In this document: positions 2,239 through 44,313 of the stretch, piece by piece | How the letters are laid out: each line of letters opens with the position of its first letter | How positions within the stretch are numbered: the first letter of the stretch is position 1 | From: Dehalococcoidia bacterium | GTDB taxonomy: Bacteria; Chloroflexota; Dehalococcoidia; Lucifugimonadales; JAGWBF01 | Assembly (NCBI GenBank): GCA_963663025.1 | Contig: OY760073.1 | Coordinates: 1,897,354-1,961,353 of the forward strand | Direction: 5' to 3' | Length of the DNA stretch: 64,000 nucleotides | Made by a program: the position numbers and the translations under genes | Notes under the pieces: model-generated | Told to the model about the DNA's origin: nothing | Databases searched by the model: none | Seen by the model: the letters and a program-made list of their open reading frames with translations, nothing else

Positions 2239-3711
2239 TCAGGGAAGCGTGCGGTTTTGGCCCATTATATCAGAGCCGTCCGGCTCGAACCTGATGGCGC
2301 AAACGCGAGAGGAGTCCTGCCTCACCCTGGCCCACTGGGCGGGCCTGTAGCCCACAACCCACGCGATGTCCGACTCGCCTACGACGAGGGGAATCCTGTC
2401 TCGCCAATGCCGGGGCACCTTCTGGTCCACGAGGAAGTCCTGTAGCTTGCCTGTCCCGTCGCTACCCAGGGGCTGGAAGCGGTCCCCGGGCCTGCGGGCC
2501 CTTACCTTCAGATGTCCAGCTACAGCTTGGGCATCCAGGTGGGCCTCAAAAGGGTCGCTGGGAAGGGGTCTGCCCGCCGGCACTTCGGCAAGGATCACCC
2601 TCCAGCCCGGTATATGGGTGACAGACGGGCTTCCTGGTGTCGGCAGGGTCAGCGAGTGGCTCCCTGTCATTTCAGGAAAGGGGCAGAGAGCTTCCGGGTC
2701 CTTGCCGATAACCAGGCTGTCATAGCTCCTCACCAGTCGAAGGCCCTTGGGCAGGTTGGTCGTGGACACGGAAGAGCTGCCAAGCATTCGCACCATGGCC
2801 AGGATGTGGGCTTCTCCCAGACGTCGGCGGCTGCCTGAAGCTTCCTCATAGGCCTTGGCCAGAACCAGACGCTGCATGAAGGGATGCAACGTCCTTAGGG
2901 AAGGCACGTCCAGTACCACCCGGCCGTCCTGCACCTCTGCCAGGGACGCCCATGCCTCGGCCAGCTCCTGCTCCAGGTAATCGGCCTCCAGGGTAGCTAT
3001 GCGAGACAGCCGGACGAGGGCGCCCTTGATGTTGGGGTTGTACTCTTCCAGCGCGGGAAGGAGGTGGTGGCGCACCCGGTTCCGCGTAAAGCGCATCAGC
3101 ACGTTGCCGGTGTCCTTACGGCAGGTGATGTTCTTCTCGACGCAATACTGGAGGGCTTCCTCTTTGGAGATTCCCAGCATTGGGCGGAAGAGCGTGGCGC
3201 GCTTATCGCCCTCTCGGCTTCTCCAATCGGAGAGCTCCACCATGCCCCTTAGGCCCCGCGTCCCACTGCCCCTCATAATGCGCATAAGGACGGTTTCTGC
3301 AAGGTCGTCGAGGGTATGCCCCAGGGCGACTATGCCAAGGCCGGTGGCTTCCGCCACCTCGCCCAGGAAGGAGTAACGTACCTCCCTGGCAGCTTCTTCA
3401 AAGGAGGACACGCCAGCCTTCCTCTGATAGTCCGCCGGGTCAGCCTTGCCGATGGTGGAAGGCAAGCCGAGGCTGCTGGCAACCTGGGCGACGAACCTGG
3501 CATCCACCTTGGCTTCATCGCCCCTGAAATCATGGTCGAGATGAGCGACATGGAGGTCCAGGTTGGCCTGCTCCTTCAAGGCAACCAAGGCATGGAGGAG
3601 GGACATGGAGTCGGGACCGCCGGACACCGCCACCACCATGCCGGTGTTTCCCGATGGACACCCCAACCCGTGGAGGGAAGCCAGGACTTGGGCCTCGAGA
3701 TTGTACATCAC
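2239..3711 (-). CDS. tilS: tRNA(Ile)-lysidine synthase
   Basis: 490 aa; PP-loop VAVSGGPDSMSLL, HLDHDFRG block, C-terminal TilS substrate-binding region. Confidence 0.9.
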   Translation of the reverse strand: MMYNLEAQVLASLHGLGCPSGNTGMVVAVSGGPDSMSLLHALVALKEQANLDLHVAHLDHDFRGDEAKVDARFVAQVASSLGLPSTIGKADPADYQRKAGVSSFEEAAREVRYSFLGEVAEATGLGIVALGHTLDDLAETVLMRIMRGSGTRGLRGMVELSDWRSREGDKRATLFRPMLGISKEEALQYCVEKNITCRKDTGNVLMRFTRNRVRHHLLPALEEYNPNIKGALVRLSRIATLEADYLEQELAEAWASLAEVQDGRVVLDVPSLRTLHPFMQRLVLAKAYEEASGSRRRLGEAHILAMVRMLGSSSVSTTNLPKGLRLVRSYDSLVIGKDPEALCPFPEMTGSHSLTLPTPGSPSVTHIPGWRVILAEVPAGRPLPSDPFEAHLDAQAVAGHLKVRARRPGDRFQPLGSDGTGKLQDFLVDQKVPRHWRDRIPLVVGESDIAWVVGYRPAQWARVRQDSSRVCAIRFEPDGSDIMGQNRTLP

Positions 3712-3714
3712 AGC

Positions 3715-4332
3715 CTACTTAGGCCGGACGGAGTCCAGATGGCACCGCTCGTTGATGGTCAGGACCTGGGGTGACCCAGCAGAGAAGGAAACAACACTAA
3801 TGGAAGCAAGGTCCACCCTGAGCCGGTGGAACATGGACAAGGGCAAGCCGAGGCAAGCGCAGAGGATGGACCTGATGGCAAAGTTGTGAGATACGGCCAC
3901 CACCGTACCTTCAGCGTGGGCGTCCTCCATCTCTTCTATGGCACGCCAAGCCCTGGTCTGCAGTTGGCGTATGGATTCGCCCTGGGGGAATACGACGTCT
4001 GAGGGGTCCTCACGCCAGGATGCGTACAGCTCTGCATACTTGGAGCGCATCATCTTCCCGGTTATGCCTTCCAACGCGCCCAGGTTGACCTCTTTCAGCC
4101 CTTCCCTAGGCTCTACGGGGAGACCGATAGACTTGGAGACCATCGATGCTGTCATGAGGGTCCGGGGCAGGGGACTTGAGTACAGGGAGGTCGGTTTCCA
4201 GGAGACCAGGGCGCCAGCGACATGCCGGGCCTGTTCCATGCCCCTGTCGTTAAGTTCGACCTGGCTCTGGCCTTGAAACCGGCCTTCCCGGTTCCACTTG
4301 GTTTCCCCGTGCCTTACCAGTATCAAGCGCAC
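3715..4332 (-). CDS. histidine phosphatase family protein (phosphoglycerate mutase-like)
   Basis: RLILVRHGETKWN (RHG catalytic motif), SHNFAIR block. ORF is open to 4458 but that overlaps the upstream gene; GTG at 4332 gives the family-typical M-R-L-I-L-V-R-H-G start. Start uncertain. Confidence 0.8.
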   Translation of the reverse strand: MRLILVRHGETKWNREGRFQGQSQVELNDRGMEQARHVAGALVSWKPTSLYSSPLPRTLMTASMVSKSIGLPVEPREGLKEVNLGALEGITGKMMRSKYAELYASWREDPSDVVFPQGESIRQLQTRAWRAIEEMEDAHAEGTVVAVSHNFAIRSILCACLGLPLSMFHRLRVDLASISVVSFSAGSPQVLTINERCHLDSVRPK

Positions 4333-4367
4333 TGCTGCGGCATGCTCCTTCCGGGGAAGCCAGGGGA

Positions 4368-5033
4368 TCAGATGCCCCGTCTGCTCTTCACATACAACAG
4401 GATTCCAGCGCCGATAACGAGCAAGGCGCCACCCACGATGAGGGGTATGATCCACCACAAGGCCGATATGGCGCTGGCGGGCGTGTCTTCGATAGTGAAA
4501 GTGGACTCCGAGCTGCTGGTTTCCTGGGCTGTGCTGAAGTTCACCGTCGCCGTGTAATCTCCGCCGAGATCAGGAGGATAGTAGACAATGGAGTAACTTA
4601 TCTTGCCCCCGCTGTAGCTCATAGCCGAACCGCTGCCACCCGGAGAGACACCATCGTGGGTCACGGTCAGCCAGGCGCTTCCCACTGAGTAGGGGTCTAC
4701 ACCTTCGGGAGGTCCCCCCGTAATGTAGTCTCCCTTCCCCGTGGGCAAGTTGATGATGATACCCGTGAACCCGGACTCCCCTTCTGCCTGTCTTACCTCG
4801 AAGGTGGCAGATACGAACACTTCCTCTCTGCCTTCCAGGTCCACCTCTACATCGATAGTCACTTCATCTCCCTGGGCAAACATGGTCTGGCTGGCATCAC
4901 CACTCTTGGATGCCGTTACGTCCACCGACAGTCCCAGGGCTTGGTCGGGACGCAGCAGGAGGAGGGCTATAACGAAACAGGCAGCCAGCGATGCGTAAAT
5001 GGGAAGATATCTTGCCTGCTTCAGTTGAGTCAT
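4368..5033 (-). CDS. secreted surface protein with C-terminal transmembrane anchor
   Basis: ATG 5033 preceded by AAGGAG; N-terminal signal-like segment (YLPIYASLAACFVIALLLL...ALG); C-terminal helix WWIIPLIVGGALLVIGAGILLY followed by KSRRG. Confidence 0.6.
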   Translation of the reverse strand: MTQLKQARYLPIYASLAACFVIALLLLRPDQALGLSVDVTASKSGDASQTMFAQGDEVTIDVEVDLEGREEVFVSATFEVRQAEGESGFTGIIINLPTGKGDYITGGPPEGVDPYSVGSAWLTVTHDGVSPGGSGSAMSYSGGKISYSIVYYPPDLGGDYTATVNFSTAQETSSSESTFTIEDTPASAISALWWIIPLIVGGALLVIGAGILLYVKSRRGI

Positions 5034-18006: not shown

Positions 18007-18375
18007 ATGGTTAAGATTCCCGCCTTCCTGCTGCGCAGGGTTTACGTTAAGGGGAGCCTCACCAACGTGGACGACGGCTTCCAGTTCCAGCTTCTCAACT
18101 CCCTGGGCTCGGGCTATGCCCGGCGCATGCTCCCCCTCACCCTCGACGGCCGGGAGATAGCCATGGAGCAGTGCACATTCCCGTTGAACGACGGCGCATG
18201 CTCCTTTGACCGGGTGTCCAACGACCTGCCCTTCACCCTGGATGTGAACAAGACCGTCACCATTACCGTCCACGGCGAGACCCTGGACGCCAACCCCCAC
18301 ACCATCGTCCTCAACTTCGAGGTTGCCGGACTGGGCGAGCTCACCCTGGACTTCACCGACACCCCCGCCTCCTGA
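18007..18375 (+). CDS. hypothetical 122-aa protein
   Basis: Tightly packed between aldolase and epimerase, GC3-rich; no family recognised. Confidence 0.5.
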   Translation: MVKIPAFLLRRVYVKGSLTNVDDGFQFQLLNSLGSGYARRMLPLTLDGREIAMEQCTFPLNDGACSFDRVSNDLPFTLDVNKTVTITVHGETLDANPHTIVLNFEVAGLGELTLDFTDTPAS

Positions 18376-18386
18376 AGCCGCCAGCC

Positions 18387-19331
18387 ATGAACGTAGCGGT
18401 TACCGGGGCATCGGGCTTCCTGGGGCGGAACCTCCTGCCCGTCCTCAGCGCCGACCCGTCCATCGAAAGCATCATAGCCCTGGACATGGCGCCCGCAGGC
18501 CCCGACCTACCCAAGGTCGATCACCGCCGGGTGGACCTTGCCTCCCTGCCCGCCGACGCCTTCGCCAAGGACCGGGTCGATGCCGTCCTCCACCTAGCCT
18601 TCCACCTGCGCACCGACCGCCGGGGCCGCCTGAGCCAAGACAACCTGGCCGGCACCCGGGCCCTCCTGGAAGCCTGCCATAGCGCCAGCGTGCCCAACAT
18701 CATCTTCCTCAGCAGCCACACCATCTACGGCGCCCATGCCCACAACCCTGTGCCCATAACTGAGGACACCCCAGCGGACCCACTGCCCGGCTTCGGCTAC
18801 GCCGAGGACAAGGCCGCCTGCGAGGAGCTTATGCTGGAGTACGCCGAAACCCACCCCGACGCCACCGTCGCCATCCTCCGCTCCTGCATGGTGCTCGGCC
18901 CGGGCAGCGCAGGCAGATACCCCGCCCGCACCCTCTTCAAGCCTGTCTTGCTGCGCCTCATGGGCTATGATCCCCTTCTACAATTCGTGCATGTGGAGGA
19001 CCTGACCCGCCTTCTCCACCGGCTTGTCACCCAGCCTGTGGCGGGCGCCTTCAACGTGGCAGGCGACGGCGCCATCCCCTACAGCCGGGCCGCCCGCATC
19101 GCCTCCAGCCGCTTGCTGCCCCTGCCCGTGGGCTTGGCGTATCCCCTGGTCGGCCTGACCTGGCGCCTGGGGCTCCAGGGCGACTCCCCTGCCATCGGCC
19201 TCGAGTACATCCGCCACCCCATCCTCCTGGACACCGCCAAGCTCACCCACGCCACCGGCTTCCGGTTCTCCCACTCCTCCGAGTCCGCCCTCCGCGCCGC
19301 CTTCCCCAGTTCGTCTTCCCCCCTCCCTTGA
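18387..19331 (+). CDS. NAD-dependent epimerase/dehydratase (SDR)
   Basis: VAVTGASGFLGRNLL Rossmann motif, YxxxK (YAEDK); last codons lie in repeat-like sequence. Confidence 0.8.
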   Translation: MNVAVTGASGFLGRNLLPVLSADPSIESIIALDMAPAGPDLPKVDHRRVDLASLPADAFAKDRVDAVLHLAFHLRTDRRGRLSQDNLAGTRALLEACHSASVPNIIFLSSHTIYGAHAHNPVPITEDTPADPLPGFGYAEDKAACEELMLEYAETHPDATVAILRSCMVLGPGSAGRYPARTLFKPVLLRLMGYDPLLQFVHVEDLTRLLHRLVTQPVAGAFNVAGDGAIPYSRAARIASSRLLPLPVGLAYPLVGLTWRLGLQGDSPAIGLEYIRHPILLDTAKLTHATGFRFSHSSESALRAAFPSSSSPLP

Positions 19332-19334
19332 TGC

Positions 19335-20040
19335 AACTGCCCGTTCGCCCTTCGAGAGCCTCAGCACGAACGGGGCCCGCCGTCATTGCGGCCCCCCACC
19401 GTCATTGCGGCGTAGGCCGCAATCCAGGAAACACAGGCTGGGGAGCAAGCCTCCCATACCGTCCCTCCTGCCCATTCGCCCTTCGAGAGCCTCAGGGCGA
19501 ACGGCAGTATAAGGCCCACGCCCCCCATTCGTGCTGAGGGGACTCGAAGCATGAACGGGGGCCGTCGTCATTGCGGCGTAGGCCGCAATCCAGGAAAGTC
19601 AGGCCGGAAACAGCTGGGTGTGACAAAGATGCCCCGCCGTCATTGCGGCGTAGGCCGCAATCCAGGAAAGTCAGGCCGGGGACAGGCCGCCCATACCGTC
19701 CCCCTGCCGTTCCCCCTTCGAGAGCCTCAGGGCGAACGGCTGTGCAGGCCCACGCCCCCCGTTCATGCTGAGCACCCCCTTCCGTTCGTGCTGAGGCTCT
19801 CGAAGCACGAAGGGAGGGTGAAGGACGAAGCCATCCGCCGTCATTGCGGCGTAGGCCGCAATCCAGGACGGAGCATTGCCGGGTCCCGGGATGGCTCCTT
19901 TATCCCCGTAAGTGCCATATTGAGGAACTTGGCCCAATTCCAGGTCTAGGGTTTCCTGGATTGCGGCCTCCGCCGCAATGACGACTAGCGTGGAGGACGT
20001 CCCTGCCGTTCACCCTTCGAGAGCCTCAGGGCGAACGGAC
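19335..20040. repeat. REP/BIME-like mosaic array 1
   Basis: Modules A (about 5 copies) and B in both orientations; track ORFs here (e.g. 19551..19949) are repeat translations. Confidence 0.9.
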
Positions 20041-20053
20041 AATCCCGCTGTCG

Positions 20054-20083
20054 TTGACGAAAGATTGCCTCGGCTACTATAGT
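20054..20083 (+). promoter_or_regulatory. sigma70-like promoter of the small-protein/protease pair
   Basis: TTGACG (20054-20059) - 18 nt - TATAGT (20078-20083). Confidence 0.45.
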
Positions 20084-20136
20084 GGACTTGAGGCGCCTTA
20101 ATGCCCTGAACCAGGGGAGAGCGCACTCCCACACAA

Positions 20137-20150
20137 GGTCCTCGAGGACC
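20137..20150. promoter_or_regulatory. perfect 14-bp palindrome, operator-like
   Basis: GGTCCTCGAGGACC between the promoter and ATG 20179. Confidence 0.35.
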
Positions 20151-20178
20151 GAAAAGAGTAGGCGATGAGAAGGGGAAA

Positions 20179-20466
20179 ATGGCTACAGGACCGAGTCCAC
20201 GCCAAGTCATAGAAGAGATGGGTGGGGCCAAAGCGGTCCTTGCGGGGTTTACTGAGTTCTATAACAGGATGAACGCCCTGGATGCCAAGCGATCCCAGCT
20301 TACCGAAGAGTACCCCGATAAGTGGATCGCCTTGCACAACGGAGAGGTAAGTGTCAGCTCCGATTCCCTGGAAGAACTCCTTGGAGAAATGGACCGCCTC
20401 GGCATACCAAGGAAAGAGTCCATCGTCGAATTTATGGAAACCGAGCGCAGAAACCTGGTTCTTTAG
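20179..20466 (+). CDS. small protein resembling DUF5678-type proteins
   Basis: 95 aa, good RBS (GAGAAGGGGAAA-ATG); C-terminal EYPDKWIALHNGEVSVSSDSLEELL pattern. Confidence 0.6.
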   Translation: MATGPSPRQVIEEMGGAKAVLAGFTEFYNRMNALDAKRSQLTEEYPDKWIALHNGEVSVSSDSLEELLGEMDRLGIPRKESIVEFMETERRNLVL

Positions 20467-20478
20467 CAGGCCTGCCTC

Positions 20479-20919
20479 TTGATTAGCGGAACCTTTGACC
20501 CAACGTACAGACGGCCCTACGTCCGGGGCCGTCTTGCTTTACCCGGCCTCCACCTCGATGACTACATCTACTTCCTCGTGGATACTGGGGCAGACACCAC
20601 CACGATCTATCCCCGCGACGCGCTGCGCATGGGCATCGACTACGACAAGCTCTCTCCCGTGGAGGTCCCCCAGTACGGGGTCGGAGGCATCGAATATGCC
20701 TCTGAGGAACACGCAAACATCTTTTTCCAAGATGGCCGCTCTATCCGCACTTACACCATCCTGGTATCCGTTCCTAGGCCAACGGAACACAATATTCGCC
20801 TCCCCTCTCTCTTGGGCCAGGACATCATCCAGTACTGGAGAATGGTCCACGACAAACGCCGGGACCGCTTGACCTTCACCGTTCGCCGGGCAGACCTGAC
20901 CCTGCGCAGCCACCAATGA
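20479..20919 (+). CDS. retropepsin-like (clan AA) aspartic protease, single domain
   Basis: 146 aa; FLVDTGADTTTI catalytic DTGA at residues 35-38 and SLLGQDIIQYW near the C terminus, parallel to retroviral LLDTGADDTV / IIGRNLL. Confidence 0.75.
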   Translation: MISGTFDPTYRRPYVRGRLALPGLHLDDYIYFLVDTGADTTTIYPRDALRMGIDYDKLSPVEVPQYGVGGIEYASEEHANIFFQDGRSIRTYTILVSVPRPTEHNIRLPSLLGQDIIQYWRMVHDKRRDRLTFTVRRADLTLRSHQ

Positions 20920-20930
20920 CCCCCTACTTC

Positions 20931-20987
20931 TCCGAGGCCGCCCTCCGCGCCGCCTTCCCCGACCCATCTTCCCCCCTCCCTTGATGC
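20931..20987 (+). repeat. 57-nt duplicate of the 3' end of the epimerase gene (partner 19278..19334)
   Basis: TCCGAG-N-CCGCCCTCCGCGCCGCCTTCCCC-N7-CTTCCCCCCTCCCTTGATGC present at both sites, including the TGA stop. Confidence 0.85.
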
Positions 20988-21522
20988 TCTTTTTTCGTCC
21001 CCCTCCCTTGATGGGAGGGGATTAAGGGGAGGGTGATACCCAGCCCCGAGCCTCCCCTAATTTTGCTCCCCCTCACCCCAACCCTCTCCCTCCAGGGGCG
21101 AGGGAGTATTGGGAGGGTGACCCGCCCGCTAGAGAAGGCCCCCCTGCCCGTTCGCCCTGAGGCTCTCGAAGGGTGAACGGCTGTACAGGCCGCCGCTGCC
21201 CCCCCGTTCGTGCTGAGACTGTCCTGAGGCTCTCGAAGGGGGGACTCGAAGCATGAACGGGGGGGGGCCGCAATCCAGGACGGAGCATTGCCGGATCCCG
21301 GGATGGCTCCTTTCCCTCAGTGACTACTACAGTGGAGACCTGACGCAGTCCCGGAGTTTCCTGGATTGCGGCCTACGCCGCAATGACGAATAGCGTGGAG
21401 GACGTCCCTGCCGTTCACCCTTCGAGAGCCTCAGGGCGAACGGCTGTACAGGCCGCCGCTGCCCCCCGTTCGTGCTGAGCCTGTCCTGAGGCCCTCGAAG
21501 GAGGAAATCGAAGGGGAACGGG
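20968..21522. repeat. REP/BIME-like mosaic array 2
   Basis: Modules D, C, B, A, B. Confidence 0.9.
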
Positions 21523-21572
21523 CGGAGCCATAACGCACGGCAGGTGTCAGGGTGTCCCTACATCCCAGCCGG

Positions 21573-21581
21573 TGCTATAAT
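21573..21581 (+). promoter_or_regulatory. extended -10 promoter (TGcTATAAT)
   Basis: TGCTATAAT 41 nt upstream of ATG 21622; no good -35. Confidence 0.4.
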
Positions 21582-21621
21582 CGGGCGCCAGACCCAATAC
21601 CCTTCCTTACAGGAGTACGCC

Positions 21622-22488
21622 ATGACCACCAACAAGAAAGCCACCACCGTCGTCCGCGAAGCCTTCTTCCGCAAGGGCAGGCCCATCTTCGGCATCAGCG
21701 CCCCCACTCCCTTCGGCGCCAAGCTCCTCGAGCGCGCCGGCTTCGAGTACCTATTTATCGGCGGCGATGCCACCATGGCCCCCATGCTGGACATCCAGGG
21801 CACCGGCGAGATCGACATGACCACCTCCGTCATGCTCGGCAGAACCTTCGCCAACGCCGTCTCCATTCCCATCGTCATGGACGTTGACGTGGGCTTCGGC
21901 GGCCCCACCCAGGTCGCCAAGATCGTCCGCGAGTACATCCGCAACGGCGTCGCAGGCATACGCATCGAGGACGGCATCGTCCGCTACCTCCGCGACAAGG
22001 TCCAGGGCAGCGTCCACGACGAGGTGACCTCCGCCGAGGAGATGGTGCTCAAGGTCGAGGCCGCCTCCGACGCCCGCAACGAGCTGGACCCCGACTTCCT
22101 CATCATCGCCCGCAGCGACTGCCACTTCGCCGAGGGCTACCGGGGCGTCGAGGAGGTCATCGAGCGGGCCAAGGCCTACAACAAGGCAGGCGCCGACGTG
22201 CTATTCACCACTAGCGCCGTCAAGGCCCAGGGCGACGTCAAGGACCACATCCGCACCGTCGTCCAGGGCGTCGCCCCCATGCCCGTCTCCATCCCCGGCA
22301 ACGGCCTGGATGTGGACGAGGGGGCCGAGCTGGGCGTGGCCGAGATACGCTACCCCTACGAGCTCCTCCGGGCCATGCACTCGGCCGGGTGGGACCACAT
22401 CGTGGACATCAAGAACCGGGGCGTCGCCGCCATCAACGACTGGCGGGAGCGCAACAAGGACAACCCCTACCGCGCCAACCAGGCCTGA
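21622..22488 (+). CDS. isocitrate lyase / PEP mutase family protein (methylisocitrate lyase-like)
   Basis: AGGAG 6 nt upstream of ATG 21622; FEYLFIGGD, VMDVDVGFGG, GIRIEDG blocks. Confidence 0.8.
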   Translation: MTTNKKATTVVREAFFRKGRPIFGISAPTPFGAKLLERAGFEYLFIGGDATMAPMLDIQGTGEIDMTTSVMLGRTFANAVSIPIVMDVDVGFGGPTQVAKIVREYIRNGVAGIRIEDGIVRYLRDKVQGSVHDEVTSAEEMVLKVEAASDARNELDPDFLIIARSDCHFAEGYRGVEEVIERAKAYNKAGADVLFTTSAVKAQGDVKDHIRTVVQGVAPMPVSIPGNGLDVDEGAELGVAEIRYPYELLRAMHSAGWDHIVDIKNRGVAAINDWRERNKDNPYRANQA

Positions 22489-22491
22489 TGT

Positions 22492-23220
22492 CTTTATCCC
22501 CCTCACTCCAACCCTCTCCCGCCAGAGGAGAGGGGGCCCCAATATCTCCCCCCTCCCTTGATGGGAGGGGACTAAGGGGAGGGTGAAACACTGAAGGGAG
22601 CCATCCTGCTAGCCGGCAGCGCTCCGTCCTGGATTGCGGCCTCCGCCGCAATGACGAACAAGGTGGAGGGCGCCCATACCGTCCCACCTGCCCGTTCACC
22701 CTTCGAGGGCCTCAGGGCGAACGGACAGTATAAGGCCCACGCCCCCCGTTCGTGCTGAGCACCCCCTTCCGTTCGTGCTGAGGCTCTCGAAGCACGAAGG
22801 GACAAGCCGCCCCTACATTAGAGCCATCCTGGAACCCGGCAGCGCTCCGTCCTGGATTGCGGCCTTCGCCGCAATGACGAATAGCGTGGAGGCCGCCCAT
22901 ACCGTCCCACCTGCCCGTTCACCCTTCGAGAGCCTCAGGACAGGCTCAGCAGGAACGGGCCCCACCGTCATTGCGGCGTAGGCCGCAATCCAGGAAAGTC
23001 AGACCGGGAACAGCTGGTTGTGACGACCCCCCCACCGTCATTGCGGCGTAGGCCGCAATCCAGGAAAGTCAGACCGGGAACAGCTGGTTGTGACGACCCC
23101 CCCACCGTCATTGCGGCGTAGGCCGCAATCCAGGAAAGTCAGACCGGGAACAGCTGGGTATGACGAAAACCCCCCACCGTCATTGCGGCGTAGGCCGCAA
23201 TCCAGGAAACCTAGGTCGGG
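22492..23220. repeat. REP/BIME-like mosaic array 3 (includes 70-bp tandem)
   Basis: Modules C-D-A-B-B-A-B then four tandem module-A units. Confidence 0.9.
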
Positions 23221-23251
23221 GCCAGGGGCGTGGGGATGACGGGGCAGGGAA

Positions 23252-23587
23252 TCAGGGCGGCCCAATAAGCCACGAACCGCCGTCAGCCTCAGTGATCCTC
23301 AGGCCGTGGGCCCTGGCGATGGCTTCGTGCACCGACGATAGCTCCGCAGGAGGATTGGCGAGTTCCAATAGCAGGTCGCGCCCGTGGCTTTGTGAAAGCT
23401 CGCCCATCGAGTGCAGCAGCTCATCGAAGAAGGATGGCGTAAATCCTTGGATTCCCGCAAAGTCCAGCGCCAAAGATTCCGCCGATTCATTCAACGCCTC
23501 CGCTATGCCCGCTCCCACATTCCTGGCCGTTGTCCTCGTGACAAGCAATTTGAATGCGACCATATCTGCGATGCCTATCATGCCCAC
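23252..23587 (-). CDS. STAS-like protein resembling DUF4325
   Basis: 111 aa; LALDFAGIQGFTPSFFDELL pattern; GGAGGTG RBS; 11 nt downstream of the ATPase gene. Confidence 0.65.
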   Translation of the reverse strand: MGMIGIADMVAFKLLVTRTTARNVGAGIAEALNESAESLALDFAGIQGFTPSFFDELLHSMGELSQSHGRDLLLELANPPAELSSVHEAIARAHGLRITEADGGSWLIGPP

Positions 23588-23598
23588 ACCTCCGCCCC

Positions 23599-24204
23599 TC
23601 AGCCCGGAATCGAAGCGTAAGCTAGCGTACCGGGAAACAACTTTGTACGCCGTGCCTGGCTCTGGAGTTCTTCCCCTATCTGAAGCACACCAATACCGGA
23701 CTGTATTAAGAGCTGCCTTTGCGCCTTTCGCACCTCTTCCACCACGCTGAATAGCCCCATACCCCTGGTGGGGTCCTGCGTTCCGCTTACCCGTTCCTGC
23801 ATAGCAACCTCAATCGCCACCCAGTCATAGGGCACCCGGGCCAACAGCGCAGGGTTCCGCTCCAGCGAGCGCCTGATCCCTATTCCTCCATCAGCTACGG
23901 CGCAGATGAACCGAGGCCCGTTGGCCGACTCCCGGTATTGGATATAACCGAAGGCGCCGACCTCGGATTCCGAGTGCTGGACTGCATTGAGCGCCAGCTC
24001 GGCGAAAGCGTCGGCCACCACTTGGTAAATGTTTGAAGCTCCAAGCCCGGAACCTGTCAGACCATCGATTACATCGTTGGCGACCTTCTCGACTTGGTAC
24101 TCGGATTCCAGATCGGTCAATGGCAAAATGAGCCTTTCAGTGCCTCCGCCTGGAACATCTCTATCGTCGATCGCCACTCCCTTTTCCTTCAGGATATCGA
24201 ACAT
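23599..24204 (-). pseudogene. 3' part of IS-disrupted STAS-GHKL ATPase gene (SpoIIAB/RsbW-like kinase domain)
   Basis: N-box ELALNAVQHS, G1 VADGGIGI, G2 TRGMGLF. The ATG at 24204 is internal to the reconstructed gene. Confidence 0.75.
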
Positions 24205-24985: not shown

Positions 24986-26146
24986 ATGACCGAGTTTACC
25001 GAGACCACAACCTACATCATCACCTGCCCCGACTGCCAGGGGAATAAGGTCAGGAAGCACGGCTTCCAGGCAGGGCAGCAACGCTATTTCTGCAAGGGCT
25101 GTAAAAAGGCGTTCCGTGCCAACGGCAAAGCCCAGGGCCGCAGAATGGACGCCGACATGGTGGGTTCCGCCATCAGGGACTACTACACTGGCAAAAGCTA
25201 CAAGCAGATTGCCGAAGGGCTGAAGAATGAGTACGACCTGGCGAAGGAGCCGAGCAAGGCCACCATCTATGAGAACGTGAGGGATTACACCACCAAGGCC
25301 GTTGGGGAGCTGAAAGACCACAAGGCCAAGACGGGCGGCCACTGGGTAGCCGATGAAATGCAGGTGGATGTGGGCGGGGAAAAGGTGTGGCTGTGGAACG
25401 TGATGGACTCCAAGACCCGCTACATTCTGGCATCCCATCTGACACCAAGACGGGATGCCCAAGCCGCCAGGGTGGTCTTGCGAAAGGCGGCGCTGGCGGC
25501 AGATAAGCCCCCCACAAGCATCACGACCGACAAGCTACGTTCCTACATTCCAGCCGTCAAGGATGTCATTCCCGAGTCCAAGCATATCCAGTCCGAGGGG
25601 ATGCGGGCCAAGGTCAACAACAACCTTTCGGAGCGTTTGCAAGGGACCTTCAGAGACCGCATAAAGACTTTGCGGGGCCTCGACAGCATCAAGACTGGTC
25701 AGCACTACCTCGACGGCTGGACGCTGACTTACAACCATTTCCGAGGCCATGAAAGCCTTGGGAATAAGACGCCAGGGGAGAAGGCGAAGATGAAGCCTCC
25801 GTTCAGGGAGTGGGCAGACGTGGTAAAAGCAGGGGCCGCAACCCTGCCGAAGGTAAAGGCGGGGAAGCGGCCATCGCTATCGTTACCGAAGTCGAGACAG
25901 CCAAAAGCCAGCCAGGATAAGGAAGCTGGCACGAAACGACGTGGACGCATCAAACCGCCCAAGCCTGTGTTGCCGAAGGTGGGACGGTCTCAAGCAGACC
26001 AGGGTAAGAAAGCTGGCAAGAGACCACGTGGTCTTATCGAACCGCCCAAGCCTGTGTTGCCGAAGGTGGGACGCCGTGCCAAGAAGCCTAAATCTCGAAC
26101 TCCCAGGTGGGCAAGAGTCATCCCACGTCTGCCACGACGGAATTAA
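24986..26146 (+). CDS. DDE transposase with N-terminal CxxC..CxxC zinc finger
   Basis: AGGAG 5 nt upstream of the ATG; CPDCQGNKVRKHGFQAGQQRYFCKGCKKAF. DDE-like blocks WVADEMQVDV, SITTDKLRSY, NNNLSERLQGTFRDR (IS6/IS240-type spacing). Basic C-terminal tail with a 29-aa tandem duplication. Confidence 0.85.
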   Translation: MTEFTETTTYIITCPDCQGNKVRKHGFQAGQQRYFCKGCKKAFRANGKAQGRRMDADMVGSAIRDYYTGKSYKQIAEGLKNEYDLAKEPSKATIYENVRDYTTKAVGELKDHKAKTGGHWVADEMQVDVGGEKVWLWNVMDSKTRYILASHLTPRRDAQAARVVLRKAALAADKPPTSITTDKLRSYIPAVKDVIPESKHIQSEGMRAKVNNNLSERLQGTFRDRIKTLRGLDSIKTGQHYLDGWTLTYNHFRGHESLGNKTPGEKAKMKPPFREWADVVKAGAATLPKVKAGKRPSLSLPKSRQPKASQDKEAGTKRRGRIKPPKPVLPKVGRSQADQGKKAGKRPRGLIEPPKPVLPKVGRRAKKPKSRTPRWARVIPRLPRRN

Positions 26147-26172
26147 CTGTCACTGGCCAGTGACAGTTAATT
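26141..26172. repeat. perfect 32-nt palindrome at the IS right end
   Basis: AATTAACTGTCACTGG|CCAGTGACAGTTAATT overlapping the transposase stop codon. Confidence 0.85.
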
Positions 26173-26564: not shown

Positions 26565-27322
26565 CTTTATCCCCCTCACCCCAGCCCTCTCCCACCAGGG
26601 GAGAGGGAGCCCCAATATCTCCCCCCTCCCTTGATGGGAGGGGACTAAGGGGAGGGTGAAGCACTGAAGGGAGCCATCCTGCTAGCCGGCAGCGCTCCGT
26701 CCTGGATTGCGGCCTTCGCCGCAATGACGAACAAGGTGGAGGGCGCCCCAGCCGTTCGTGCTGAGGCTCTCGAAGCACGAAGGGAGGGTGAAGGACGAAC
26801 CCCACCGTCATTGCGGCGTAGGCCGCAATCCAGGAAACACAGGCCGGGAACAGGCCGCCCATACCGTCCCCCCTGTCCGTTCGCCCTTCGAGTCCCCTCA
26901 GGGTGAACGGCTGTACAGGCCCACGCCCCCCGATTCTCCCCTTCGAGTCCCCTCAGGGCGAACGGGCAATGCGGCTGACTCCCCCCGTTCGTGCTGAGCA
27001 CCCCCTGTCCGTTCGTGCTGAGGCTCTCGAAGCACGAAGGGGCAGACCGCCCCTGCACTAGAGCCATCCTGGAACCCGGCAGCGCTCCGTCCTGGATTGC
27101 GGCCTACGCCGCAATGACGAATATCCTTGCAATGATGAAAAGCCTGGGGGGCCCAGGGCCAGGAAGGCGTCGGGGGTGAAGACAACGCCCCCACCGTCAT
27201 TGCGGCGTAGGCCTCAATCCAGGAAACCTAGGCCGGAGGCAGGCCGCCCATACCGTCTCCCCTGCCCGTTCACCCTTCGAGAGCCTCAGGGCGAACGGAC
27301 GGCTTCCCTCAGGGTGAACGGA
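26565..27322. repeat. REP/BIME-like mosaic array 4
   Basis: Modules C-D-A-B-A-B-B-B-A-A-B; first 184 bp nearly identical to 22492..22675. Confidence 0.9.
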
Positions 27323-31362: not shown

Positions 31363-32380
31363 CGTCGTTCCCGCTTGCGCGGGAACCTGCGCTGGCTCGG
31401 CGCAGGGCGTCCGTTCGCCCTGAGGCTGTCCGTTCGCCCTTCGAGAGCCTCAGGGTGAACGGACAACACGGGCCAACCTGTCCCAGTCCCTGACTTTCCT
31501 GGATTGCGGCCTTCGCCGCAATGACGACACCCCCGTTGATGCTTCGAGTTCCCCCTTCGAGAGCCTCAGGACAGGCTCAGGGTGAACGGACAGCGGCGGG
31601 GCAGCCTGGCCCAGTCCCTGACTTTCCTGGATTGCGGCCTTCGCCGCAATGACGAAGGACGTGGATGATGTGAGAAAGGGCAGGGGACGCAAGGCCAGGT
31701 AGGGCGATGGTGTAACGAAAGGCCTCCCGTCATTGCGGCGGAGGCCGCAATCCAGGACGGAGCACTGCCCGGTACCAGGCTGGCTCCAACATTACGATGA
31801 ACGCGGCGAACGATGCGGAATCTCAGTTAGTGTTGCGTTGGGGCACCTGGATTCATTCCAAAGTTTCCTGGATTGCGGCCTTCGCCGCAATGACGAAGAG
31901 CGTGGCGGGTGAGAGCTGTCCGTTCGTCCTTCGAGAGCCTCAGGGTGAACGGACGCCCCGATCCACCCTAGTCCCGGTCTGACTTTCCTGGATTGCGGCC
32001 TCCGCCGCAATGACGGAGGACATGGATGGTGTGAGCAAGGGCAGGGGACGCAAGGCCAGGTAGGGCGATGGTGTAACGAAAGGCCTCCCGTCATTGCGGC
32101 GGAGGCCGCAATCCAGGACGGAGCACTGCCCGGTACCAGGCTGGCTCACACCCCCTACCGTCGTTCCCGCGAAACTTGTCCTCGTGAAAACGGGGAGGGG
32201 AAACCTATGCTGGAATGCAGCAGGGCTGTCCGTTCACCCTTCGAGAGCCTCAGGGTGAACGGGCAACACGGGCCAACCTGTCCCAGTCCCTGACTTTCCT
32301 GGATTGCGGCCTTCACCGCAATGACGGCGTCCCCCGTTCATGCTTCGAGTCCCCCCTTCGAGAGCCTCAGGGTGAACGGA
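31363..32380. repeat. REP/BIME-like mosaic array 5
   Basis: Modules E, B, A (about 7 copies) including a 168-bp segment duplicated at 31619..31786 and 31980..32147. Confidence 0.9.
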
Positions 32381-35130: not shown

Positions 35131-35155
35131 GGGGCCATCCCCCGGCCGCCAGCCT

Positions 35156-36607
35156 CCGTTCACCCTTCGAGAGCCTCAGGGCGAACGGAAGACGACGGGC
35201 CTTTCGTCATTGCGGCGTAGGCCGCAATCCAGAACGGAACGTTGCCGGGTTTCAGGCTGGCTCTCACCAGGGTAGGCCCCGTTCATGCTTCGAGTCCCCC
35301 CTTCGAGAGCCTCAGGACAGGCTCAGCACGAACGGGAGCGTCGGCCTTATACTGCCGTTCGCCCTTCGAGAGCCCCTTCGAGAGCCTCAGGACGAACGGA
35401 ATACGACGGGCCTGCCTGTCCCAGGCCCTGGGTTTCCTGGATTGCGGCCTTCGCCGCAATGACGGCGTCCCCAGTTCGTACTTCGAGTCCCCTCAGCACG
35501 AACGGGAGCGTCGGCCTTATACTGTCGTTCGCCCTGAGGCTCTCGAAGGGTGAACGGAGGACGACGGGTTTAGCAGCGGGGCGTAGACTCCCGCTTGCGC
35601 GGGAGTGACGGTGGGGGTAGCGGGAGTGACGGTGAGGGTGCCCTCACACCAGCCACGCTATTCGTCATTGCGGCGTAGGCCGCAATCCAAGACGGAGCGC
35701 TGCCGGGTTTCAGGCTGGCTCTCGCCAGGGTGGGCCCCGTTCATGCTTCGAGTTCCCTCAGCACGAACGGGGAGCGTCGGCCTTATACTGCCGTTCGTCC
35801 TGAGGCTCTCGAAGGGCGAACGGACGACGACAGGTTTAGCAGCAGGGAGTAGACTCCCGCTTGCGCGGGAGTGCCGGGCAACGTAGAGCATCCGCGCCGT
35901 TCGTCATTGAGGCCTTCGCCGCAATGACGGTGGGGGCCTTTCGTCACACCCGCGCCCTTCCGGACCTTGCGTCCCATACCCTTCCCCACACCAGCCACGC
36001 TATTCGTCATTGCGGCGTAGGCCGCAATCCAAGACGGAGCGCTGCCGGGTTTCAGGCTGGCTCTCGCCAGGGTGGGCCCCGTTCATGCTTCGAGTTCCCC
36101 CTTCGGGCGCCTCAGGACAGCCTCAGCACGAACGGGAGTGGGGATCAGGGCGAACGGAGATATATATTATCCCCCCTCCCTTGAGGGAGGGGATTAAGGG
36201 GAGGGTGATGCCCCCGCCGGGAGCGCATCCCCCATGGTGGTCCCCCTCACCCCAACCCTCTCCCACCAGGGGAGAGGGGGTAGGGGCTTCTCCCGTTCGT
36301 GCTTCGAGTTCGTACTTCGAGAGCCTCAGGACAGGCTCAGCACGAACGGGGGCGTCGGCCTTATACTGTCGTTCACCCTGAGGCTCTCGAAGGGCGAACG
36401 GCCTGTCAGGGGCCTGCCTGATTCCAGCCTGAGTTTCCTGGATTGCGGCCTTCGCCGCAATGACGGCAGGGGGGCCGTTACAGCCAGCCTTACTCGCACC
36501 AAGCCTCCTCGGATGTATTATGATGTAGGCGTCCCCCTCACCCCAACCTTCTCCCGCGGGGAGTCCTACTCCCCCCTCCCTTGAGGGAGGGGATAAAGGG
36601 GAGGGCG
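35156..36607. repeat. REP/BIME-like mosaic array 7 (longest non-tandem array)
   Basis: Modules B, A, E, D, C in repeated blocks. Confidence 0.9.
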
Positions 36608-39232: not shown

Positions 39233-40095
39233 ACCGTCGTTCCCAGGCCTCCCGCCCCTGTCCGCTCCCCCTTCGAGTTCCCTCAGGGTGAGCGGACAGG
39301 GGGAGAGCGCTCAGTCCCCCGTTCATGCTTCGAGAGCCCCATCGACAGGCTCAGCACGAACGGGAGTGGGGATCAGGACGAACGGGCGACGGCGGGTTTG
39401 GCGGCAGGACGTAGACTCCCACTTGCGCGGGAGTGACGGAAGCAGGGGCGGCCACGCTTTTCGTCATTGCGGCGAAGGCCGCAATCCAGGACGGAGCGCT
39501 GGCGGGTTCCAGGCTAGCTCCTAAGTTGGAGCCAGCAGACCCTTGGGGGAGGACAACACCTCTGCCAAGCAGCCCAGCCGTTCGTCCTTCGAGTCCCCTC
39601 AGGACGAACGGCCTGTCAGGGGCCTGCCTGTCCGAGGCCCTGGGTTTTCTGGATTGCGGCCTTCGCCGCAATGACGGATTGATGCTCCCCCTCACCCCAA
39701 CACTTTCCCACTAGGGGTCGTCCCCGCCGTCCCGCCCCTGTCCGCTCTCCCTTCGAGTTCCCTCAGGGTGAACGGACAGGGGGAGAGGGTCAGTCCCCCC
39801 GTTCGTCCTGAGCCTGTCCTGAGGCTCTCGAAGGGGAACTCGGAGGGCGAACGGCCTGTCAGGGGCCTGCCTGTCCCAGGCCCTGGGTTTCCTGGATTGC
39901 GGCTTACGCCGCAATGACGGATTGATGCTCCCCCTCACCCCAACCCTCTCCCACCAAGGGTCGTCCCCGCCGTCCCGCCCCTGTCCGCTCCCCCTTCGAG
40001 AACCTCAGTGTGAACGGACAGGAGGAGAGGGTCAGTCCTCCCGTTCATGCTTCGAGAGCCTCAGCACGAACGGGGGTGGGGCTCAGCACGAATGG
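39233..40095. repeat. REP/BIME-like mosaic array 8
   Basis: Modules E, B, A, C in three roughly colinear blocks. Confidence 0.9.
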
Positions 40096-42786: not shown

Positions 42787-44313
42787 CGTTCCCGCTTGCG
42801 CGGGAGTGACCGTAAGAGGCAGAGCTTCGGGAAGGCTGGGTGCGTCGAAAGGCTGCCTCGTCATTGCGGCGTAGGCCGCAATCCAGGACGGAGCACCGCC
42901 GGACTCCAGGATGATTCCAATGCCCCCTCACCGTCATTGCCGTGAAAGCGGGGACACTGCCTTAGTAAAGAGCACGGCGGCTGCGGGAGTGACGGTAATT
43001 TGAGGCAGCCTGTCCCAGGCTCGGAGTATCCTGGATTGCGGCCTACGCCGCAATGACGAAAGGCGTTGCCGGTGTGAGGAGAGGTGGGTATCGCAATGCT
43101 CGGAATGGGGCGGCCTGGTGTTTCCCATGTCCGTTCCCCCTTCGAGAGCCTCAGGACGAACGGACAAAGGGAACGCCAGAAGAGGGCAGGAATTCAAAAG
43201 AAGGCCGGTTGTGCCGAAAGGCTATGCCGTCATTGCGGCGTAGGCCGCAATCCAGCACGGACACTGCCGGACTCCAGGTGGACTACTTAATCACGGCAGT
43301 TACTGCTTGGGGGGCCTGTTCCCAGCTCGGAGTATCCTGGATTGCGGCCTTCGCCGCAATGACGAAAGGCGTTGCCGGTGTGAGGAGGGGTGGGAGTCGC
43401 AATGCCCGGAATGGGGCGGCCTGGTGTTTCCTCTGCCCGTTCCCCTTCGAGTTCGTACTTCGAGAACCCCTTCGACAGGCTCAGGGCGAACGGACAAAGG
43501 GAACGCCAGAAGAGGGCAGGAATTCAAAAGAAGGCCGGTTGTGCCGAAAGGCTATGCCGTCATTGCGGCGTAGGCCGCAATCCAGGACGGACACTGCCGG
43601 ACTCCAGGTGGACTACCTAATCACGGCAGTTACTGCTTGGGGGGCCTGTTCCCAGCTCGGAGTATCCTGGATTGCGGCCTACGCCGCAATGACGAAAGGC
43701 GTTGCCGGTGTGAGGAGAAGTGGGTATTGCAATGCCCGGAATGGGGCGGCCTGGTGTTTCCCATGTCCGTTCCCCCTTCGAGAGCCTCAGGACGAACGGA
43801 CAAAGGGAACGCCAGAAGAGGGCAGGAATTCAAAAGAAGGCCGGTTGTGCCGAAAGGCTATGCCGTCATTGCGGCGTAGGCCGCAATCCAGGACGGAGCA
43901 CCGCCGGACTCTAGGTGGACTACTTAATCGCGGCAGGTACTGCATCAGGGGGCCTGTTCCCAGCCCGCAGTATCCTGGATTGCGGCCTACGCCGCAATGA
44001 CGAAAGGCGTTGCCGGTGTGAGGAGAGGTGGGTATCGCAATGCCCGGAATGAGTCGGCCTGGTGTTTCCTCTGTCCGTTCGCCCTTCGAGTTCGTACTTC
44101 GAGAGCCCCTTCGACAGGCTCAGGACAGGCTCAGCACGAACGGGAGGAGAGAAGGCCTGTCCGCTCCCCCTTCGAGTCCCCTCAGGGTGAGCGGACAAGG
44201 GGGAGGGTGACGCCCCCGCCAGAAGCGCATCCTCCATGATGGTCCCCCTCACCCCAACCCTCTCCCACCAGGGGAGAGGGGTAGTAGATATGTGTCCGTG
44301 GCGGGAACGACGA
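42787..44313. repeat. REP/BIME-like mosaic array 9 with higher-order tandem repeat
   Basis: Composite unit of about 306-330 bp (modules A, B, A plus unit-specific sequence) starting at 43027, 43333, 43663, 43971. Confidence 0.9.

Follow-up and report, generated by a model that had tools for sequence, protein, structure and literature searches.

A DUF5678 Protein Paired with a Free-Standing Retropepsin-Like Protease in Dehalococcoidia: A Mobile Two-Gene Unit and Possible Toxin-Antitoxin-Like Module

The Two Genes of the Cassette

We describe a two-gene cassette from a Dehalococcoidia bacterium, found in a stretch of 64,000 nucleotides (nt) of contig OY760073.1 (assembly GCA_963663025.1), which as a whole is hereafter called the window. 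The first open reading frame, ORF1 (20179-20466, plus strand), starts with ATG and encodes a protein of 95 amino acids (aa) of the DUF5678 family, here called the partner. After 12 nt it is followed by ORF2 (20479-20919, plus strand), which starts with TTG and encodes a retropepsin-like aspartic protease of 146 aa. The same pair recurs in other genomes, in ever different surroundings, and we suggest that it may be a toxin-antitoxin-like (TA-like) or abortive-infection-like module in which the partner would restrain the protease.

The partner gene was called on the basis of profile matches, predicted fold and the ratio of nonsynonymous to synonymous substitution rates (dN/dS), and the protease gene on the basis of profile matches, hydropathy and dN/dS. 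Neither protein contains a signal-peptide or transmembrane stretch, the highest 19-residue Kyte-Doolittle means being 0.63 in ORF1 and 0.68 in ORF2, compared with about 1.6 for a transmembrane helix. The cassette has a G+C content of 56.5%, against 62.3% for the window. A sequence-only reading of this DNA had proposed a DUF5678-like small protein followed 12 nt later by a retropepsin-like protease devoid of signal peptide and transmembrane segment, and all of these proposals were borne out.

A Retropepsin-Like Protease

ORF2 contains FLVDTGADTTTI and SLLGQDIIQYW, in which the retropepsin signature had been recognized. In a protease family alignment of 32 members built from related loci, residues D35, T36, G37, G67 and G113 are invariant, and F32, L33, V34, A38, P109, S110, L112 and D115 are conserved in at least 90% of the members. 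The catalytic D35-T-G-A motif, located by both the family and the profile alignments, is encoded at 20581-20592 (D35 codon at 20581-20583) on the plus strand. Downstream of it, on the same strand, lie a flap-like G67-V-G-G motif (20677-20688), which the profile places on the flap GIGG of FIV protease, and P-S-L-L-G-Q-D (20803-20823), the hydrophobic-hydrophobic-Gly motif before a helix, which aligns with LLGRD of the same enzyme. The subfamily also has a conserved N-terminus of its own, MIxGxFD..GRPYVxGRL.

Matches to known clan AA families are close to the cut-offs for ORF2 itself and widespread among its relatives. ORF2 scores 24.6 bits for the Pfam family Asp_protease_2 (cut-off 24.3), 20.7 for RVP (cut-off 20.7) and 25.3 for gag-asp_proteas (cut-off 28.2), and between 24 and 29 of the 32 members match these three families, with gag-asp_proteas matched by 29. 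When the family profile was compared with PDB sequences, retropepsins alone were significant, beginning with ApRick (2.7e-6) and FIV protease (3.5e-6) and continuing with EIAV protease, ASPRV1, RSV protease and DDI1. The alignment with FIV protease spans the DTGA motif, the GIGG flap and LLGRD, and the DTGA of ApRick is aligned as well. ORF2 falls outside TIGR02281 (clan_AA_DTGA), for which it scores 17.9 bits against a cut-off of 57.95, and it lacks the N-terminal transmembrane helix of that family. By these criteria ORF2 is a putative retropepsin-like protease, soluble and of a single domain, whose catalytic apparatus is intact and in which every sequence hallmark is kept. Retropepsins are active as homodimers, with a dimer interface made of terminal strands, and by analogy the protease of the cassette probably acts as a homodimer too.

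The protease resembles the known retropepsins (retroviral protease, APRc/ApRick, DDI1, ASPRV1, RimB/RloA) in its length of about 140 aa, its single domain, its Phi-Phi-D-T-G-A motif (Phi, hydrophobic), its Gly-rich flap and its Phi-Phi-G before a helix, although its profile scores against them are marginal (E about 1e-5 to 1e-6). It differs from the characterized ones in being free-standing and soluble, without polyprotein, membrane anchor, signal peptide or UBL/UBA domains. Among the bacterial enzymes of this type, APRc is membrane-anchored (PMC4140852), RimB belongs to the RimABK system (PMC11957791) and RloA is secreted (PMC11957051). None of these is paired with a DUF5678 protein, an obligate association that sets the protease described here apart from the characterized examples.

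A DUF5678 Partner with a Conserved C-Terminal Tail

ORF1 scores 23.0 bits against DUF5678 (PF18929), 0.2 below the gathering threshold of 23.2, and 33 of its 39 relatives match the family at E < 0.01 (best 5.1e-9) over a C-terminal beta-beta-alpha-beta domain. The AlphaFold2 model of the partner (pLDDT 86.5) comprises three helices (residues 7-44), the beta-beta-alpha-beta domain (48-86) and a flexible tail, of which residues 92-95 are disordered in the monomer model (pLDDT < 50). This model superposes on predicted DUF5678 proteins in BFVD with an E value of 1.2e-4, a TM-score of 0.60 and a root-mean-square deviation of 1.6 Å over 64 columns. By profile and predicted fold, ORF1 is assigned to the DUF5678 family. 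Its subfamily goes beyond the Pfam domain at both ends, with about 45 additional N-terminal aa that contain the three helices and with the conserved C-terminal tail. Fold and profile searches of the partner against PDB gave no significant match, and weak ubiquitin and roadblock-like hits (TM-score about 0.2) were not used.

An exhaustive search with the partner profile retrieved 2,102 representatives at 50% identity with E <= 1e-3, 487 of them with E <= 1e-10. We examined the C-termini of the top 150 diverse representatives and found that 106 of them end exactly at the last profile position. The tail has the consensus (P/R)-R-x-(M/L)-(I/V)-L-COOH, a true C-terminus, or in its extended form T-(E/N)-P-R-x-(M/L)-I-L-COOH. 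The last position is Leu in 94 of 107 sequences, the one before it Ile in 82 of 107 and the one before that Met or Leu in 89 of 107. About 30% of the representatives carry short extensions past the tail, such as MILCHP, MVLPCR and LVLYAAG. In the window, the tail reads RRNLVL-COOH (codons at 20446-20463, plus strand); it was delimited by the tail consensus and by its low pLDDT.

No fusion of partner and protease was found among the top 150 representatives, which include instead a few proteins that repeat the DUF5678 unit in tandem. It occurs two or three times in the single polypeptides P0067, P0071, P0072, P0080, P0093, P0096, P0143 and P0182. Partners of this kind could fit a dimeric protease with its two-fold symmetry.

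Conservation and Distribution of the Pair

A scan of species-representative genomes yielded 65 loci, nearly all of them in metagenome-assembled genomes (MAGs) of Dehalococcoidia, with single loci in Thermodesulfobacteriota, Calditrichales, Binatia and Thaumarchaeota (MAG L029). The module idea had been made to depend beforehand on co-occurrence of the two genes in other genomes, and this proved to be strict. The closest homologues of the protease (46-62% identity) as well as a distant group of 141-aa proteins (about 33%) all have a gene for 87-95 aa immediately upstream. With hidden Markov models of both proteins, the partner gene was found to end between -14 and +13 nt from the protease start at essentially every locus of the subfamily (about 45 loci). 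The commonest arrangement is a 4-nt ATGA overlap (14 of 43 pairs), and gaps of 5 to 8 nt also occur. The longer protease relatives of proteobacteria, with 200-350 aa (L053-L074), have no partner.

Apparent exceptions were resolved on inspection. Two loci that seemed to hold partner-less proteases (L022 and L038) have divergent partners, ending in ...VIIL and ...VMVL, which overlap the protease start by 4 nt. Three other loci seemed to hold orphan partners. In two of these (L076, 3301-3741; L077, 3301-3732) an intact protease gene, 66% and 72% identical to that of the window, had been skipped by the gene finders used for the assemblies, likely because of its TTG start and weak ribosome-binding site; in the third (L075) the protease gene is truncated by an insertion. 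As the protease gene begins with TTG or GTG and goes uncalled in some assemblies, annotation of the family in public data is incomplete.

Neighboring genes were different at every pair locus inspected, and no third conserved gene or other candidate substrate was found beside the pair at the loci examined. Several genomes have two or three copies, among them OY762251.1 with three and OZ241987.1 with two. Two complete pairs, in tandem or divergent arrangement, are present at each of the loci L031 (1419-2508 minus, 3172-4417 plus), L039 (2883-3603, 3706-4423) and L038 (2560-3275, 4299-5065), and L014 (2307-2636, 2838-3594) holds an extra copy of the partner, indicating local duplication of the module. 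Mobility is hinted at by a DDE transposase beside the pair (L077), by the insertion of a HigBA-like gene pair (L075), by an IMG/VR contig carrying the pair (L078) and, in the window, by a duplicated gene tail that is described below. The pair is an autonomous, translationally coupled, co-evolving, mobile and multi-copy unit, in agreement with the layout of a TA-like or protease-regulator module suggested for it from the sequence alone.

No match to the pair was found in phage and plasmid collections, nor to either protein in PHROGs. Among 2.9 million viral contigs, a single one carries the pair (L078, IMGVR_UViG_3300024263_000029, 3706-4453), and its viral nature is thinly supported; there the pair lies downstream of a 667-aa ORF and of an ORF with weak similarity to phrog_399, a structural-protein family.

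Selection, Co-Divergence and Decay

The two genes are real and under purifying selection. Values of dN/dS between 0.07 and 0.35 were obtained in 19 of 20 gene comparisons, with the partner at 0.08-0.35 and the protease mostly at 0.07-0.32. Moreover, the divergence of the partner and that of the protease are correlated across 38 loci (r = 0.57, a value exceeded in none of 2000 permutations).

These data bear on the possibility that the pair is a functionless relic of a retroelement, with a Gag-like protein and its protease, or a chance juxtaposition. The gene order, with a retropepsin behind a small protein whose C-terminus is hydrophobic, has a superficial likeness to Gag-Pro, and both ORFs share the same reading frame in the closest group. 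Nevertheless, this frame relation is not conserved, as shown by the overlaps of 4 nt and the gaps of 5 to 8 nt; no reverse transcriptase or integrase was found nearby at the window and the loci inspected; and purifying selection acts on both genes of a pair that is conserved across phyla, including the thaumarchaeal MAG. We regard this explanation as nearly excluded. Programmed read-through or frameshifting that would yield a fusion protein was also rejected, since the frame relation is not conserved.

Decay was observed in one direction. A decayed protease gene stands beside an intact partner at four loci (L040, L055, L056 and L075), and an intact protease without partner was found at none. 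Loss of the protease first is the direction that toxin-antitoxin logic would predict. In L075 (3301-3501), when compared with the syntenic L076, the last two-thirds of the protease gene are replaced by a HigB/HigA-like pair (Gp49 and HTH_37, minus strand, 3522-4228), and the partner is intact.

Promoter and Leader

A sigma-70-like promoter, TTGACG-18-TATAGT, lies upstream of the pair at 20054-20083 on the plus strand and matches at 10 of 12 positions. Taken alone such a site is weak evidence, with one found against 0.5 expected in 3 kb. The equivalent position, however, has the same hexamers (TTGACG/TATAGT) in L075 and L076 and TTGACA/TATAAT in L001, and a -10 box (at least five of six positions, within -130 to -10) is found upstream of 22 of 44 pairs against a background of 10.5% (p = 6.6e-11). 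The relatives' hexamers and the enrichment of -10 boxes thus lend support to the promoter that the sequence-only reading had assigned to the cassette.

DNA homology to the closest relative, L077, amounts to 75% over 812 nt and covers 20099-20906 of the window, from which we conclude that the conserved unit consists of the leader plus both genes. The conserved part of the 5' leader (20099-20178, plus strand), which begins where the blastn homology begins, holds a TCCCACAC box at 20127-20134 and a GA-rich ribosome-binding site at about 20167-20175. A CCCAC[AG] box is present in 13 of 54 upstream regions, against a background of 10%, and only in close relatives; the 'CCCACAC' leader box was for this reason rejected as a general regulatory motif. 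We also rejected a structured RNA or known RNA family in the leader, which has no match in Rfam and folds no better than shuffled sequence (z-score -1.04).

Repeats and a Possible Insertion

The cassette had been described as an inserted segment between repeat arrays. It is indeed flanked by REP-like repeat units, upstream at 19335-20041 and downstream at 21137-21520, yet these units belong to families dispersed throughout the genome. Two such intergenic families are abundant in the window on both strands, CGTCATTGCGGCGTAGGCCGCAATCCAGGA with 43 copies and CCGTTCACCCTTCGAGAGCCTCAGGGCGAACGG with 17. Further REP-like sites are found, for example, at 22590-23241 (including a tandem array of units of about 70 nt at 22960-23241), 26700-27300, 31430-32330, 35150-36470, 39460-39920 and 42860-44000. 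Given this dispersal, the flanking repeats do not mark an insertion of the cassette.

The idea of an insertion is better served by another feature. Directly after the protease stop codon, at 20923-20987 (plus strand), lies a 65-nt relic that is 88% identical to the 3' end of the upstream epimerase-family gene (19270-19334). It corresponds to the last 20 codons of that gene plus the stop codon, occurs at these two sites only in the window, and can be read as ...YFSEAALRAAFPDPSSPLP where the intact gene reads ...HSSESALRAAFPSSSSPLP. Such a duplicated gene tail suggests a local event at the 3' end of the epimerase gene, either the insertion or the rearrangement of a segment of 1.65 kb composed of REP units and the cassette. 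In L077, a metagenome contig that comes from a related genome, as it shares both REP families, the PEP-mutase gene has the pair on its opposite side, where the pair adjoins the DDE transposase.

A Toxin-Antitoxin-Like Reading

Both protein families and the layout of the module are known; the pairing, the tail motif and a retropepsin as probable effector are undescribed. Apart from the CRISPR accessory proteins considered below, a literature search gave nothing relevant that joins retropepsins with toxin-antitoxin systems, and DUF5678 was mentioned in one unrelated paper only, in line with the earlier statement that the pairing had no described function. In several respects the cassette is similar to type II TA systems. 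The unit has a promoter of its own and consists of a small first gene and a slightly larger second one, coupled in translation; it is multi-copy, patchy and found in variable, sometimes mobile contexts, and where decay is seen the downstream gene is lost first.

Retropepsins prefer a hydrophobic residue at P1 and a beta-branched or hydrophobic one at P2, as in ARVL/AEAM and ATIM/MQRG. The partner tail resembles the P3-P1 side of such substrates (ARVL/ and ATIM/), and this established biology together with the tail sequence makes the substrate cleft, or else the dimer interface, the most plausible docking site of the tail. Combined with the distribution of the pair, it leads us to prefer the TA-like or abortive-infection-like reading, in which the partner would restrain a protease effector. 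We hold this reading tentatively, giving it somewhat less than an even chance.

The mechanism could be as follows. Promoter, leader (about 95 nt), partner gene and protease gene would form one operon with translational coupling of the two genes. The dedicated DUF5678 partner would bind the retropepsin-like protease and control it, probably by docking its free hydrophobic C-terminal tail in the substrate cleft, where the tail, as a mimic of the cleavage product, would keep the enzyme inactive; the terminal-strand dimer interface is possibly an alternative docking site. Were the partner lost or displaced, the protease would be set free to cleave targets of the cell or of an invader. That the pair represents a previously undescribed TA or abortive-infection class, defined by a homodimeric retropepsin effector that is silenced by the DUF5678 tail as a product mimic in the cleft, is a narrower proposal and a rather doubtful one.

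We know of no aspartic protease serving as toxin among the described TA families. If the proposal is true, the pair would be the first TA-like system whose toxin is an aspartic protease, and it would reveal for the first time a function of DUF5678, a Pfam entry without assigned function that comprises about 2,100 clusters at 50% identity. A toxic protease would be an effector of a chemistry new to toxin-antitoxin and defense biology, and its partner would offer a natural design for peptide-tail inhibitors of retropepsins. Few free-standing retropepsins are known from prokaryotes, and these are poorly understood; the pair provides a frame for studying the cytoplasmic control of a minimal aspartic protease.

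Several results weigh against the TA-like reading. The AlphaFold2 model of the protease has low confidence (pLDDT 63.8, from a shallow alignment), although it contains a helix at residues 110-117, and its top Foldseek matches in PDB, all of the pepsin type, are not significant (E >= 0.14, TM-score about 0.25). With a weak model and no significant structural match, we treat the fold of the protease as deduced from its sequence. Neither protein matches any known TA family. Unlike typical type II antitoxins, the partner is devoid of ribbon-helix-helix, helix-turn-helix, AbrB or Phd-like DNA-binding domains, and searches in Pfam and against PDB folds and profiles recognized no DNA-binding family or fold in it. 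No conserved operator accompanies the pair either. The perfect 14-nt palindrome GGTCCTCGAGGACC (20137-20150), which had been taken for an operator, is present, but it is absent from the same place in the close homologues L001, L002, L004, L009 and L077, the last with a leader 75% identical to that of the window. Besides, the window contains seven perfect palindromes of at least 14 nt, and random sequences from a first-order Markov model have 5.8 +/- 2.3. Being at chance level and not conserved, the palindrome is probably not an operator, and we reject that role for it. Without a DNA-binding antitoxin and an operator, the pair does not belong among the classical type II TA systems, even though it may work like one. 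Moreover, the asymmetry of decay (four loci against none) is not significant, because the numbers are small and the protease is the longer gene. Finally, the neighbors of the pair are mostly housekeeping or metabolic genes and not defense islands, and none of the 39 partners matches the PDC-M08A models, which represent the first gene of a candidate defense cassette considered below.

The main rival explanation is that of a non-toxic pair for processing or activation, with the partner as a dedicated substrate, adaptor or activator of the protease. For example, the partner might mature through cleavage at ...M-I-L|, with trimming of a short C-terminal extension, or it might deliver or activate the protease for a housekeeping task. 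The extensions seen past the tail in about 30% of the partners are what a cleavage site would look like, and mostly metabolic neighbors would suit such a role. Protease-partner pairs of the ImmR/ImmA type, which look like TA modules and act as switches, provide a precedent. In addition, characterized bacterial A2-type peptidases work with partner factors (PMC11957791). On the other hand, the 106 of 150 partners that end exactly at the tail have nothing left to cleave, a multi-copy, patchy and context-free distribution is unusual for a housekeeping function, and neither a conserved third gene nor another candidate substrate accompanies the pair. On balance we find this explanation unlikely, though far from negligible.

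Another possibility, which is a special case of the TA-like reading, is anti-phage defense of the kind predicted for PDC-M08. An infection would either be detected by the partner or disable it, and the protease would thereupon degrade proteins of the host or of the phage. PDC-M08 is a PADLOC candidate (cassette CAS_00054, FAM_03167>>FAM_00414) of two genes, derived by guilt-by-embedding from genes situated inside BREX, DISARM or type I restriction-modification loci of RefSeq genomes (Payne et al., bioRxiv 10.1101/2024.01.29.577857). Like the cassette described here, it has a small second gene (about 95-130 aa) that is related to our protease. The PDC-M08B model is matched weakly by the protease of the window (7.7e-5) and by 19 of the 32 family members in all (best 2.7e-7). 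Small retropepsin-domain accessory proteins also accompany archaeal Type III CRISPR modules (PMC3973734), and defense or mobile genes appear sporadically near the pair, namely ThsB_TIR (L009), an Eco57I-type methylase domain (L001) and HigBA (L075).

However, PDC-M08 is itself a predicted candidate, and the partners show no detectable relation to its first gene in the search mentioned above. While PDC-M08 comes from BREX, DISARM and restriction-modification loci, our pair is found among metabolic genes of uncultured Chloroflexota. In the window these are an FGGY kinase, an aldolase, an epimerase and a PEP mutase, and most other loci likewise lack defense islands. The pair is not embedded in or next to a known defense system at the window, and defense or mobile genes are only sporadic at the other loci, where no systematic test of enrichment was run. 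The lack of matches in phage or plasmid collections also speaks against this kind of defense, which we consider rather unlikely.

Genomic Surroundings

The cassette is flanked by an epimerase-family gene (18387-19331) and a PEP-mutase-family gene (21544-22488), and its wider surroundings are metabolic, with genes for an FGGY kinase and a class II aldolase. Between the aldolase and epimerase genes, an ORF of 122 aa (18007-18372), standing by itself, matches only the N-terminal domain of HMG-CoA reductase (PF25653, 1.1e-17).

Directly beside a REP array lies another small two-gene unit (23252-24204, minus strand), in which a 111-aa DUF4325 (STAS-like) protein (23252-23587) adjoins a 201-aa protein without Pfam match (23599-24204). 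Further downstream, at 26141-26172, we found the perfect 32-nt palindrome AATTAACTGTCACTGGCCAGTGACAGTTAATT, by far the longest of the window and AT-rich in a genome of 62% G+C, which could be an operator or a recombination site.

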